A stretch of 64,000 bases of DNA from NCBI GenBank assembly GCA_947570695.1, contig CANOVB010000001.1:14553-78552 (forward strand). The letters are read 5' to 3'. The notes beneath the pieces were generated by a model, which was not told the DNA's origin, made no database searches, and saw nothing but the letters and a program-made list of their open reading frames with translations. Numbering within the stretch: the stretch's first letter is position 1; each line of letters begins with the position of its first letter. A program made the position numbers and the translations under genes. This stretch comes from an uncultured Clostridium sp. (GTDB lineage: Bacteria > Bacillota > Clostridia > TANB77 > CAG-508). Of the stretch, positions 51,294 through 54,291 are shown piece by piece.

Positions 51294-53402
51294 ATGAAAA
51301 AATTTAAATTTGACAAGCAAAAGATTAAATTGATTTGCACAAGTACTTTTCTTTTTTCGTTTATTTTTTCAGGAACAGTTCTAGCAACTGATTTTGAAGT
51401 GAATCTTTCAGAAGAATATAAAAAGTGGAATGCATTAAGTATAGAAGAAAAAGAAAAAACTTTAATGCCACAAACGAATTATTCAGAAGTACCAGATAAT
51501 ATTTTAAGTAAATATGAAATAAATAAAGTGCCAAATTTATTAGATGAATTAGTATCAGGAAAATCCAGAGAAAAAAGCTTGGATAATGTGTCAAGTGTTG
51601 TATCTAATTCAAGATATAATATAGCAGATAGGCTAAATATGAGAGTGGAGCATCAAGGAATAACTACAGAGTGCTGGGCTTTTGCTACATTAAAATCAAT
51701 GGAAACAAATATAGCATTAACAAGTGGACAAACAGAACTAAAAGATTTTTCAGAAAGACATACAGATTATGCAACATCAAGAACTTTTTTAGATGGCGTA
51801 AATGAAAATGGATTTAATAGAGAAGTTGGAAGAGGAGGACTTCCAATATCTGCTCTTGCATATTTAACAAATGGACAAGGTGCTGTTCTTGAAAGCGATA
51901 TGCCTTTTGAGAATAATGAACAAAAAATAAATTTATCAGAAATAAATAAAAAAGTTGATACAATAGTTACAGATTATACAATTTTACCTTCAATACGTAA
52001 AACTTATCAAAAAGATGTAAATGGAAATACTATATCAGTAAAGTATTATGATGTTGATGGAAAAGAAATTCTACCAGCAGTATTACAAAACACTAGAAAT
52101 ATAATAAAAGAACATCTAGCAGAAAAAGGAGCTATTGCTTCAATGACAGGCGGAAATTTAGCTCAATATTATAATAATCCAAGCTCACCTTTTGCAGCAA
52201 CAGCATATAACTGTAATGACGAAACAAAAATAAGAGATCATGCTATTACAATAGTAGGATGGGACGATAATTATTCAAGAAATAATTTTGCTGAAGGTTC
52301 AAAACCATCAACAGATGGTGCCTATATTGTACTAAATTCTTATGGTAGAGAATCTTTTGACAATGGTTATATATACATATCTTATGAAGATACATTTATA
52401 GAAAATGAAATGTATGGAATCCAATCAACATCAAAGCCTGATTATGATAATATTTATCAGCATGATTATTATGGCGGAATTTTACAAGTTGGTTCAACAG
52501 GAACAGATCTTGGATATTATGGAGTAACATATGAAAGAGAAAATAGTTCTGAAAAAGAATATTTAAATCAGGTAGGTGTAACATTAGCAGAATATTCAAA
52601 AATTGAGATTTATGTAAATCCAAGAAATACAAGCATGAAATCAGAAGACTTAATAAAAGTAGGAGGTTCTGAATCAATTTTAGAACCAGGATATCATAGA
52701 ATTAATATTAGTAGTACTGAATTAACAGGAAATGAATTTGCAATTGTTGTAAGACAAACAACTGAAGAACATAGTTTCTTTTTCCAAATAGAAACTAATG
52801 TAGAAGGGACAGTATATGGATTAGTTGAGTCTGATAATAGAAGCTTTATATCATTAGACGGAATTTCATGGAAAAATTTAAGTGATCTAAATATACAAGG
52901 AGTTGATATGAAAAAGTCAGATGTTTGTATAAAAGCATTTACAACTAAGAATAATGCTCAAACACCAACTGAACCAGATAATCCAGATGATCCAGAAAAC
53001 AATAAATTAACATCAAAAAAATATAAGATAGATGAAGAATATATAATGAATATACCAGAAGCTACAAAAGCTAGTGTATTATTAGAAAACTTAAATACAA
53101 ATTTAACAAAAGAAGTTTATAATGAAGACGAAACAGAAAACACAAGTGAAGATGTAATTATTAAAACAGGAATGAAACTAAAATTGTCAGATGGAAATAC
53201 ATATATTTTAATTGTAAGAGGAGATATAAAAGCTGATGGAATAATAGACTTAACAGATATATCAAAACTTTTACTACATTATAATGAAAATAGAGGATAT
53301 GAATTATCAGGAAATTCTTTAAAAGCCGCTGATATGAATATTGACGGAAAAGTTGATATAGTGGATATATCTCAAATATTAGTGGTATACAATTCAAAAT
53401 AA
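51294..53402 (+). CDS. Secreted papain-family (C1) cysteine peptidase with a C-terminal type-I dockerin
   Basis: Signal peptide. Active-site QGITTECWAF, DHAITIVGWD, NSYG. Dockerin repeats DIKADGIIDLTDISKL and DMNIDGKVDIVDISQIL. Confidence 0.75.
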   Translation: MKKFKFDKQKIKLICTSTFLFSFIFSGTVLATDFEVNLSEEYKKWNALSIEEKEKTLMPQTNYSEVPDNILSKYEINKVPNLLDELVSGKSREKSLDNVSSVVSNSRYNIADRLNMRVEHQGITTECWAFATLKSMETNIALTSGQTELKDFSERHTDYATSRTFLDGVNENGFNREVGRGGLPISALAYLTNGQGAVLESDMPFENNEQKINLSEINKKVDTIVTDYTILPSIRKTYQKDVNGNTISVKYYDVDGKEILPAVLQNTRNIIKEHLAEKGAIASMTGGNLAQYYNNPSSPFAATAYNCNDETKIRDHAITIVGWDDNYSRNNFAEGSKPSTDGAYIVLNSYGRESFDNGYIYISYEDTFIENEMYGIQSTSKPDYDNIYQHDYYGGILQVGSTGTDLGYYGVTYERENSSEKEYLNQVGVTLAEYSKIEIYVNPRNTSMKSEDLIKVGGSESILEPGYHRINISSTELTGNEFAIVVRQTTEEHSFFFQIETNVEGTVYGLVESDNRSFISLDGISWKNLSDLNIQGVDMKKSDVCIKAFTTKNNAQTPTEPDNPDDPENNKLTSKKYKIDEEYIMNIPEATKASVLLENLNTNLTKEVYNEDETENTSEDVIIKTGMKLKLSDGNTYILIVRGDIKADGIIDLTDISKLLLHYNENRGYELSGNSLKAADMNIDGKVDIVDISQILVVYNSK

Positions 53403-53511
53403 TAAAGTATAATATATATTAAAGTATGTTATAAAAATGTAATAAAAAAATATGCAATTTTACTTGATTTTTATATTGTTAAAAGTTATACTAAGATAAA
53501 GGAGTGTTCAA

Positions 53512-54291
53512 ATGAAAAAGATAATTTTAAAAATTACAATAATAGCAGTGTTATTAGTTTTTATTTATGCAACAATAGTTAATGCTTTGAGCTTTACAGT
53601 AACAATGACACCAAGTAGCACAACTGTTCCTGAATCAACAGAATTTACAGTATCATTTAAAATTGGAAATCTTGATGTAGGGACAAATGGAATTAATGTA
53701 ATAAGTGGTTATTTGAAATATGATGAATCAATATTTGAAAAAATAAATGATTCTAATATAGATGGAGCAAGTGGATGGAATCCAACTTATGGAGCAGATG
53801 TTGGAAAAATAACATTAACAAAAGGAACATTTGTTAAAACAGAAGAACCAATTTTCCAATTAACTTTTAAAACAAAAGCTGGAGCGTCAACTAAAAAAGG
53901 AGAAATACATTTTACAAATATAGTTGCTTCTAATAGCGAGACAACTATATCAGCGTCAGATGTAACAGCAACTATTATGATAGGAACAGCTAGTGAAAAT
54001 GTAGCAAATACTACAAATACAACACCAGCACCACTTAATGTAGTTGCAAGACCAACAAACAATACAGTTAATAAAACTAATGTTAATACTCTAGTAAATA
54101 ATACATCAAAAAATAATGTAAATAATACACCAGTATCACACTATGTTAATTCATCAACAAATACAGCAACAGGAAGTGATATTCCATATACTGGTGTTGA
54201 AGACACAATAATGTATATCATAGGAGCAATTATAGTAATTGCAATAGTTTTTTATATAAAATTTGAATTAGTCAATAAAGAAATAAAATAA
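53512..54291 (+). CDS. Cohesin-domain cell-surface protein with N/T-rich linker and a C-terminal sorting-signal-like segment (IPYTG plus TM)
   Basis: Signal peptide. ...SFKIGNLDVGTNGINVISGYLKYDESIFE...FQLTFKTKAGASTKKGEIHFTNI... matches the cohesin beta-sandwich pattern. Confidence 0.55.
   Translation: MKKIILKITIIAVLLVFIYATIVNALSFTVTMTPSSTTVPESTEFTVSFKIGNLDVGTNGINVISGYLKYDESIFEKINDSNIDGASGWNPTYGADVGKITLTKGTFVKTEEPIFQLTFKTKAGASTKKGEIHFTNIVASNSETTISASDVTATIMIGTASENVANTTNTTPAPLNVVARPTNNTVNKTNVNTLVNNTSKNNVNNTPVSHYVNSSTNTATGSDIPYTGVEDTIMYIIGAIIVIAIVFYIKFELVNKEIK

Follow-up and report, generated by a model that had tools for sequence, protein, structure and literature searches.

A dockerin-bearing Cwp84-like protease encoded beside a single-cohesin protein with a sorting-type C-terminus: a probable surface-display pair of an uncultured gut Clostridium

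Introduction

Pairing of cohesins with dockerins at the cell surface has been described for several gut bacteria. ScaE of Ruminococcus flavefaciens contains a single cohesin and an LPXTG-type signal, is anchored covalently to the cell wall by sortase and holds dockerin-bearing partners (PMC2930009). For the amylosome of Ruminococcus bromii, a microarray revealed that the cohesin of Sca2 binds a peptidase's dockerin, and Sca2 was proposed to serve as a general device for anchoring to the cell surface (PMC4611034). cSca5 of the Limousia mucinolysome has an LPxTG motif, and its predicted partners are the dockerins of scaffoldins and of most glycoside hydrolases; the Limousia genome also encodes six dockerin-bearing peptidases, and cohesins together with dockerins have been reported in 4,333 metagenome-assembled genomes (MAGs) from the human gut (PMC12997984). 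Peptidase modules with dockerins, 16 in number and including a papain-like one, are likewise known from R. flavefaciens FD-1 (PMC2930009, PMC3573020). Here, we describe two neighbouring genes of an uncultured Clostridium sp., one for a secreted papain-like protease with a C-terminal dockerin and one for a surface protein with a cohesin fold. They are located in a stretch of 64,000 nucleotides of contig CANOVB010000001.1 (assembly GCA_947570695.1, positions 14,553 to 78,552, forward strand), which we call the window and to which all coordinates refer unless another locus is named.

The closest relative of known structure of the protease is Cwp84 of Clostridioides difficile, which attaches to the cell wall through three CWB2 (PF04122) repeats and has the S-layer precursor SlpA as a substrate (PMC4089489). 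The paper reporting its structure describes the combination of protease and lectin-like domains in R. bromii and other Clostridiales, and does not mention dockerins (PMC4089489). Our analysis suggests, with a probability of about 0.68, that the two genes of the window encode a minimal cohesin-dockerin display pair, in which the protease is tethered to the cell surface by the neighbouring anchor protein.

Results and Discussion

The protease and its C-terminal dockerin

The first gene of the pair has the following parts:

51294 to 53402, + strand: protease open reading frame (ORF), 702 amino acids; secreted Cwp84-like C1A cysteine protease with a C-terminal dockerin
51294 to 51386, + strand: signal peptide, residues ~1-31, MKKFKFDKQKIKLICTSTFLFSFIFSGTVLA (direct sequence reading)
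51642 to 52418, + strand: Peptidase_C1 catalytic domain, residues 117-375 (Pfam, E = 2.4e-13)
52452 to 52943, + strand: lectin-like beta-sandwich of the Cwp84 type, residues 387-550 (Pfam PF18560, E = 8.7e-19; aligns with the lectin-like domain of 4ci7)
53016 to 53216, + strand: small alpha/beta module, residues 575-641, ahead of the dockerin (AlphaFold2, block-mean predicted local distance difference test score, pLDDT, about 78-89)
53220 to 53399, + strand: dockerin, residues 643-702, with loop 1 DIKADGIIDLTD and loop 2 DMNIDGKVDIVD (Pfam Dockerin_1 and family profile)

Judged by its sequence, the signal peptide is of the typical Sec type. It is likely followed by a propeptide of ~65 residues, extending up to about residue 95, which was assigned because of the analogy with Cwp84, in which the propeptide is cleaved between Lys91 and Ser92 (PMC4089489). 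The match to PF18560 spans the whole profile (positions 1-156 of 156) and comes directly after the protease domain. Structures 4ci7 and 4d59, both of Cwp84, are the sole solved sequence relatives (E about 1e-27). In the alignment, Cys127 coincides with Cys116 of Cwp84, replaced by alanine in the 4ci7 mutant, and His316 with His262, the roles of these Cwp84 residues being those given in PMC4089489. Gln121, Cys127, His316 and Asn348 are invariant in all 61 protease homologues sampled. At E ≤ 1e-10, the family numbers 1,156 proteins. Of these, 120 homologues were listed, most of them with precomputed matches to PF00112, PF18560 and PF00404; neither the 702-residue protein nor any of the 120 listed homologues matches CWB2 (PF04122). 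From its catalytic residues and lectin-like domain, the protein can be classed as a Cwp84-like C1A protease. An earlier note on this DNA, made from the letters alone, had named it a secreted C1 peptidase with its catalytic Cys in QGITTECWAF and its catalytic His in DHAITIVGWD, in agreement with the domain match, the alignment and the invariance described here. Both of the ORFs are present, as are all the strings it quoted: these two, DIKADGIIDLTDISKL and DMNIDGKVDIVDISQIL for the C-terminal repeat, and, for the neighbouring protein, IPYTG with VEDT and a hydrophobic stretch after it.

Type-I dockerins contain two 12-residue EF-hand-like calcium loops, with Asp or Asn at positions 1, 3, 5 and 12 and a further ligand (D/N/S/T) at position 9, and a helix follows each loop. 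Loop 2 of the protease has the canonical pattern D-x-N-x-D-G-x-x-x-x-x-D, both in the window and in the whole alignment, and loop 1 is canonical in most family members. The two loops are each trailed by D-x-S-K/Q (I-S-K/Q in the window), which gives the module an internal symmetry. When a profile of the C-terminal module was compared with the PDB, it matched type-I dockerins of Clostridium thermocellum, the best with an E-value of 4.8e-4 and aligned over both loops. A search with the 132-residue C-terminal module alone returned only seven fragments, all of them with PF00404. An AlphaFold model was made of residues 575-702, in which the small module corresponds to segment residues 1-67. For the small module, the fold search gave no significant match; for the dockerin part, dockerin chains were the only coherent matches (TMt 0.57-0.65, probability up to 0.92, E 0.3-1.5).

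For comparison, 47 related loci were collected, all from MAGs of uncultured gut Clostridia (from human, chicken, rabbit, sheep and mouse, several of them named Candidatus Scatovivens), and flanks of 14 kb were inspected in each genome. A hidden Markov model built from the C-terminus of the window protein found one such segment per locus in 34 loci, always at the C-terminus of the protease, and the dockerin segment is kept in 35 of 35 proteases. The divergence of the small module tracks that of the dockerin (r = 0.90, a value that split genes may affect). When the window and about 650 kb of related loci were scanned with a general regular expression for pairs of EF-hand loops, no other dockerins emerged.

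The neighbouring protein: cohesin fold, linker and C-terminus

After a gap of 109 bp, the protease gene is followed by the second gene of the pair:

53512 to 54291, + strand: anchor-protein ORF, 259 amino acids; candidate single-cohesin surface-anchor protein
53512 to 53586, + strand: signal peptide, residues 1-25, ...ATIVNA then LSF (direct reading; N-terminal helix 2-23 in the model)
53590 to 53982, + strand: cohesin-fold beta-sandwich, residues 27-157 (AlphaFold2 and Foldseek)
53995 to 54180, + strand: N/T-rich low-complexity linker, residues 162-223 (pLDDT < 50, modelled as disordered)
54181 to 54288, + strand: sorting-type signal, consisting of IPYTG, VEDT, a 17-residue hydrophobic helix and the tail KFELVNKEIK (motif and family alignment)

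The family of this protein comprises 326 members of about 250 residues, all from uncultured gut Clostridia, and Ala25, the last residue of the signal peptide, is invariant in it. In the AlphaFold2 model, built on 52 homologues, the beta-sandwich has 10-residue block-mean pLDDT values of 88-97. Its top ~30 Foldseek matches in the PDB are cohesins throughout, of types I, II and III and from Clostridium perfringens. The best is the cohesin of a C. perfringens glycoside hydrolase of family GH33, 2vo8, with a target-normalised TM score of 0.83, a root-mean-square deviation of 2.3 Å and a probability of 1.00, and 2jh2 comes next. The cohesin profile PF00963 is reached by 11 of the 52 sampled family members (best E = 1.7e-6), and precomputed cohesin matches exist for several members of the family. 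The model thus has the elongated beta-sandwich of about 140 residues that is expected of a cohesin. The possibility that the protein is merely an Ig-like adhesin was considered and rejected, as the fold matches are mostly cohesins and family members reach the cohesin profile. The N/T-rich linker, presumed to be a wall-spanning spacer, varies in length and is the least conserved of all regions (0.45).

The C-terminal part of the family has the consensus [IMV]P[YKQEA]TG, [V/A/T]-E-D-[T/S], about 17 hydrophobic residues and Y-I-K-F-E-x-I-N-K-E-I-K. In the xPxTG motif, the position X varies (Y/K/Q/E/A), with P, T and G mostly fixed, which gives it the look of a sortase motif. NF053819, a family of sortase-dependent surface proteins, is matched weakly and below its cut-off by 22 of the 52 members, and the curated LPXTG anchor models PF00746 and TIGR01167 are each matched weakly by two of the 52. 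The architecture proposed in the earlier note, a secreted papain-like protease with a dockerin and a neighbour with a signal peptide, a cohesin fold, an N/T-rich linker and an xPxTG sorting-type C-terminus, is borne out.

Conservation of the gene pair

A third gene takes part in the conserved arrangement:

49870 to 51006, - strand: HExxH protein of 378 amino acids, cytoplasmic type, divergent; HECIH at nucleotides 50713-50727

The order found in the window, with the 378-residue gene on the minus strand followed by the protease and cohesin genes, recurs in 34 of the 47 loci; in these, the protease gene is directly upstream of the cohesin gene and protein identities are 39-70%. The features described are not a matter of chance, since both families are large (326 and >1,100 proteins) and the pair recurs in so many loci. 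The conserved adjacency supports a cohesin-dockerin display pair, but taken by itself it is modest evidence, because the whole ~15-kb block is syntenic in the 34 protease-bearing loci.

Four loci contain a second, tandem paralogue of the cohesin-anchor gene, with the motif IP[AE]TG (coordinates within each locus):

L015, 7863 to 8642: second tandem cohesin-anchor paralogue
L016, 7927 to 8718: second tandem cohesin-anchor paralogue
L022, 1471 to 2307: second tandem cohesin-anchor paralogue
L036, 7804 to 8640: second tandem cohesin-anchor paralogue

These paralogues are the only other candidate xPxTG substrates in the window and the 47 loci. The same four loci, and no others, have dockerins in which one residue is inserted and a Cys precedes loop 2. 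This apparent correlated change of cohesin and dockerin is a small piece of evidence, confounded by phylogeny.

A model for surface display, weighed against other explanations

In the proposed display pair, the 259-residue protein would be exported via Sec and then, most likely, be linked covalently to peptidoglycan by a sortase at Thr227 of its [I/M/V]PxTG motif. The N/T-rich linker of ~60 residues would span the wall and present the single cohesin on the outside. The 702-residue pro-protease would be exported separately, and its dockerin would bind the cohesin in a calcium-dependent manner. Because the dockerin is proposed to bind the anchored cohesin, the Cwp84-type enzyme, with its catalytic and lectin-like domains, would be held non-covalently at the cell surface, dockerin and cohesin standing in for the three CWB2 repeats with which Cwp84 is fixed to the wall of C. 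difficile. The comparison with Cwp84 makes it probable that the enzyme processes surface proteins of the bacterium itself, degrades host or dietary proteins at the surface, or does both. Several observations weigh against such a pair, and they are set out here together with the explanations they would favour.

Regarding the dockerin, the Pfam Dockerin_1 match of the window protein (residues 643-694, E = 1.2e-4) scores 22.7 bits against a curated cut-off of 22.9. Its loop 1 has a Lys at calcium-ligand position 3, a feature common to the window and its closest relatives (L001-3, L005, L009 and L017), whereas N (or S/T) is found in the other members. In the model, the dockerin part, consisting of a helix, a short helix and a helix, has a pLDDT of only 41-58, and the C-terminal module found no fold match at E ≤ 0.001 because this half was modelled at low confidence. 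EF-hand proteins are also among the weak matches of the C-terminal profile. Moreover, a dockerin-bearing cysteine protease of R. bromii, CBL14836.1, did not bind Sca2 (PMC4611034, Table 4). The EF-hand pair could be a calcium-binding module that stabilises the protein or binds the wall and does not interact with a cohesin, the protease being released or attached in some other way. We regard this as very improbable: true dockerins head the profile and fold matches, with alignments that extend over both loops; in most homologues the two loops have the canonical form DxNxDG and there is a precomputed match to PF00404; and a cohesin gene is located immediately downstream. The assignment as a dockerin, as judged from the sequences, is accepted at the level of the family, with the Lys of loop 1 flagged.

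The 259-residue protein itself has no Pfam match at E ≤ 1, to Cohesin PF00963 or any other family, and PDB sequence and profile searches with it gave no match. The cohesin and dockerin assignments stand despite the missed Pfam thresholds because of the family-level and structural evidence. The earlier note had spoken of a typical type-I dockerin and a cohesin-like domain, and held that failure to match the respective profiles, or, for the dockerin, a lack of proper calcium sites, would refute them. By the letter, the window sequences come close to that outcome, the dockerin being 0.2 bits short and having the Lys in loop 1, and the cohesin being without a profile match of its own. What remains is a type-I dockerin supported by the family profile and by PF00404 in most listed relatives, less typical in the window copy on account of its loop-1 Lys, and a cohesin-like domain recognisable by its fold and by the relatives that reach PF00963.

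The second group of observations concerns the attachment of the anchor protein. Among ORFs of at least 120 residues in the window and the 47 loci, none has a convincing TLxTC active-site motif of a sortase, and the window copy of the anchor protein does not match PF00746 or TIGR01167. In the family, Thr of the motif is replaced by Ala in nine of the 52 members and Pro is missing in nine of the 52 (xxYAG-type motifs lacking Pro and/or Thr in 9/52 members). The last ten residues have a conservation of 0.80, compared with 0.77 for the cohesin domain, and the GxED segment after xPxTG is conserved as much as or more than the folded cohesin domain. Gly228, Glu230, Asp231, Tyr248 and Lys250 are invariant, and Asn255, Lys256 and Glu257 nearly so. 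Such conservation of the tail is unusual for a segment that is cleaved off by sortase and discarded. Furthermore, the C-terminal helix, residues 229-258, is modelled at moderately high block-mean pLDDT values of about 76-89. These data would fit a pairing of the same cohesin and dockerin in which the anchor is a type-I membrane protein, held by its C-terminal helix and not a substrate of sortase, with the GxED segment and the cytoplasmic tail YIKFExINKEIK having a function of their own, for example towards a cytoplasmic partner. We consider this arrangement possible but doubtful. The motif varies at X and keeps P, T and G, as sortase motifs do, and together with the ~17 hydrophobic residues and the end rich in Lys it has the layout of a classic sorting signal. 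The weak matches of 22 of the 52 members to a sortase-dependent family point the same way, and the architecture is that of the sortase-anchored ScaE, Sca2 and cSca5. As for the missing enzyme, sortase genes are often unlinked to their substrates.

Other observations bear on the partnership of the two proteins. In 13 of the 47 loci, the cohesin gene has no adjacent protease or dockerin, and SNLDVG-type cohesin motifs are still kept in these loci. Coevolution was analysed with a mirror-tree and partial correlation over 27 loci, after removal of the divergence of housekeeping genes. The divergence of the dockerin has a partial r of 0.44 with that of the cohesin, 0.08 with that of the lectin domain and 0.00 with that of the 378-residue protein, values that loci with split protease genes may distort. 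The cohesin and the catalytic domain give a partial r of 0.43, and the mirror-tree signal is not discriminating because this value is as high as that for cohesin and dockerin. The 259-residue protein might be a general docking platform for several dockerins encoded elsewhere, or an adhesin, its adjacency to the protease gene being lineage-specific synteny; the synteny of the ~15-kb block makes adjacency weak evidence here. Sca2 of R. bromii provides a precedent, as it binds several unrelated dockerins (PMC4611034), and the cohesin fold also occurs in adhesins, such as the CLIPPER domain 9ifr, which is among the fold matches. We think this rather unlikely, given that the only dockerin within the window and the 14-kb flanks is that of the protease, always directly upstream, and that the loci with duplicated cohesins share a distinct dockerin variant.

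The 378-residue protein raises a different explanation. It adjoins the cohesin or protease gene in all 43 loci long enough to show this, and it is the most constant neighbour of the cohesin gene, kept even where the protease is absent. In 11 of the 13 loci without the protease (L021, L024, L025, L028-L030, L032, L033, L039, L041 and L042), the cohesin and 378-residue genes are the only genes shared with the window. The protein has a near-invariant HExxH...NEAxVQ signature and no signal peptide. No Pfam, NCBIfam or PDB family could be assigned to it, even when 43 diverse homologues were used, and its own family is narrow (289 clusters at 50% identity among 1.84 billion representatives). Upstream of one homologue of 32% identity, which is located on a short contig, a divergent ORF starts with MKSRILKISILLVILVSFLG, similar to the signal peptide of the cohesin protein, so the pair of HExxH and cohesin genes may extend to this homologue; the contigs of other distant homologues were too short to show neighbours. 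Because the pair persists in 11 loci in which the other neighbours have changed, the conserved unit might be the divergent pair of HExxH and cohesin-anchor genes. Seen together with a C-terminal tail no less conserved than the cohesin domain, this would make the cohesin protein a transmembrane surface receptor and no passive peg anchored by sortase. Its tail would communicate with, or be processed by, the cytoplasmic metallopeptidase-like protein, and the protease would be an accessory ligand gained or kept by a single clade. This seems quite improbable to us. The two-gene module of the earlier note thus keeps its adjacency in 34 of the 47 loci, and has to be qualified by a third, more constant gene and by 13 loci that do without the protease. 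Of the explanations set out in this section, the sortase-anchored display pair is the one we prefer.

Genomic surroundings

The protease gene and the gene for the HExxH protein diverge from a common region:

51007 to 51293, no strand: divergent intergenic region, 287 bp, AT-rich; ribosome-binding site of the protease gene just ahead of 51294

The sequence GCTTGAA(A/T) occurs three times at about 51199-51240, between these two genes, and the three copies may be an operator. A promoter scan of this AT-rich DNA gave 40 sites, compared with 36 expected, and a scan for a terminator between the protease and anchor genes found none. The GC content of the window is low, ~23-32%.

Upstream of the locus are addB, an alanine racemase gene, a Cu-oxidase_4 (PF02578) gene, which we take to be pgeF-like, and a uracil-DNA glycosylase gene. 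Downstream are genes for a topoisomerase, an EPSP_synthase-fold protein, presumably MurA, and proteins with FtsQ-type POTRA, DUF881 (two genes), DUF1290, FtsA and FtsZ domains. The neighbours of the pair are thus housekeeping and division genes; no S-layer gene was identified in the window, and we know of none for this lineage.

The family-4 uracil-DNA glycosylase gene (49263-49833) is split by a frameshift, with ...IMFIGEGP in one frame and GADEDREGIPFVGKAGKL... in the ORF 49456-49833, and is either a pseudogene or the product of an assembly error. Upstream of addB, a protein of 434 residues (42703-44007) has a transglutaminase-like core (PF01841) of the papain-fold superfamily.

The window also contains a prophage (~12150-34105), with genes for a ParB/methyltransferase protein, large terminase, portal, minor and major head proteins, a tape measure protein of 1001 residues, a tail fibre, a reverse transcriptase and an endolysin (Amidase_2 and three CW_7 repeats). 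Within this prophage is a diversity-generating retroelement, with a variable repeat at 29823-29916, a template repeat at 30591-30684 and the reverse transcriptase gene at 30780-31964. The variable repeat, 94 nucleotides long, is located at the 3' end of the tail-fibre gene (28675-29928); the template repeat is 82% identical to it and lies upstream of the reverse transcriptase gene. A reading of both sequences places almost all mismatches at adenines of the template. Between the two repeats is an ORF for 171 amino acids (30060-30575).

Comparison with known systems

The principle proposed here, including the binding of peptidase dockerins by sortase-anchored cohesins, has already been published, and the current picture is unchanged by this locus. 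The earlier note had called such non-cellulolytic use of cohesins and dockerins seldom described; this does not hold, as single cohesins anchored by sortase, and peptidases bearing dockerins, have been described from R. flavefaciens, R. bromii and Limousia, and cohesins and dockerins occur together in those 4,333 MAGs (PMC2930009, PMC4611034, PMC12997984).

ScaE resembles the 259-residue protein in having a signal peptide, one cohesin, a linker and a C-terminal LPXTG-type signal. It differs in that it binds the dockerins of ScaB and CttA and anchors a large cellulosome, whereas here the sole dockerin seen is that of one protease. The motif of the window protein is IPYTG instead of LPXTG, its C-terminal tail is unusually conserved, and neither the window nor the related loci contain scaffoldins or glycoside hydrolases. 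Sca2 and cSca5 are, like the 259-residue protein, from gut Firmicutes and combine one cohesin with a sortase signal; their systems contain many dockerins and several scaffoldins, in contrast to the apparent one-to-one pair encoded side by side in the window.

The toxin complexes of C. perfringens share with the window pair the use of single cohesins and dockerins outside cellulosomes by a gut clostridium, and they provide the best fold matches, 2vo8 and 2jh2. Their modules, however, join secreted glycoside hydrolases, the cohesins being inside the enzymes, with no wall anchor and no protease (summarised in PMC12997984). The dockerin-bearing peptidases of R. flavefaciens FD-1 are part of a cellulosome with 222 dockerins; they are transglutaminase or NlpC/P60-like and not of the Cwp84-like C1A type, and no dedicated cohesin adjoins them.

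If the proposed pair is correct, proteolysis would be added to the functions of cohesins and dockerins in the gut, beside those of cellulosomes, amylosomes and mucinolysomes. One cohesin with one dockerin would also be a minimal natural system in which to study cohesin-dockerin specificity and surface display.

Cwp84, in which the lectin-like domain was seen for the first time, has the same combination of C1A and lectin-like domains, the same catalytic residues, and a signal peptide and pro-region, and it is associated with the cell surface (PMC4089489). In the window protease, the small module and the dockerin replace the CWB2 repeats; identity between the two proteins is low and the alignments are local. 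Three features set this locus apart: a Cwp84-type enzyme that carries a dockerin where CWB2 repeats would be, what looks like a one-to-one pairing of the products of neighbouring genes, and the association with the HExxH gene. The locus would show a swap of anchors, with a dockerin and a single cohesin serving in uncultured low-GC gut Clostridia (Candidatus Scatovivens and relatives) where C. difficile has CWB2 repeats.

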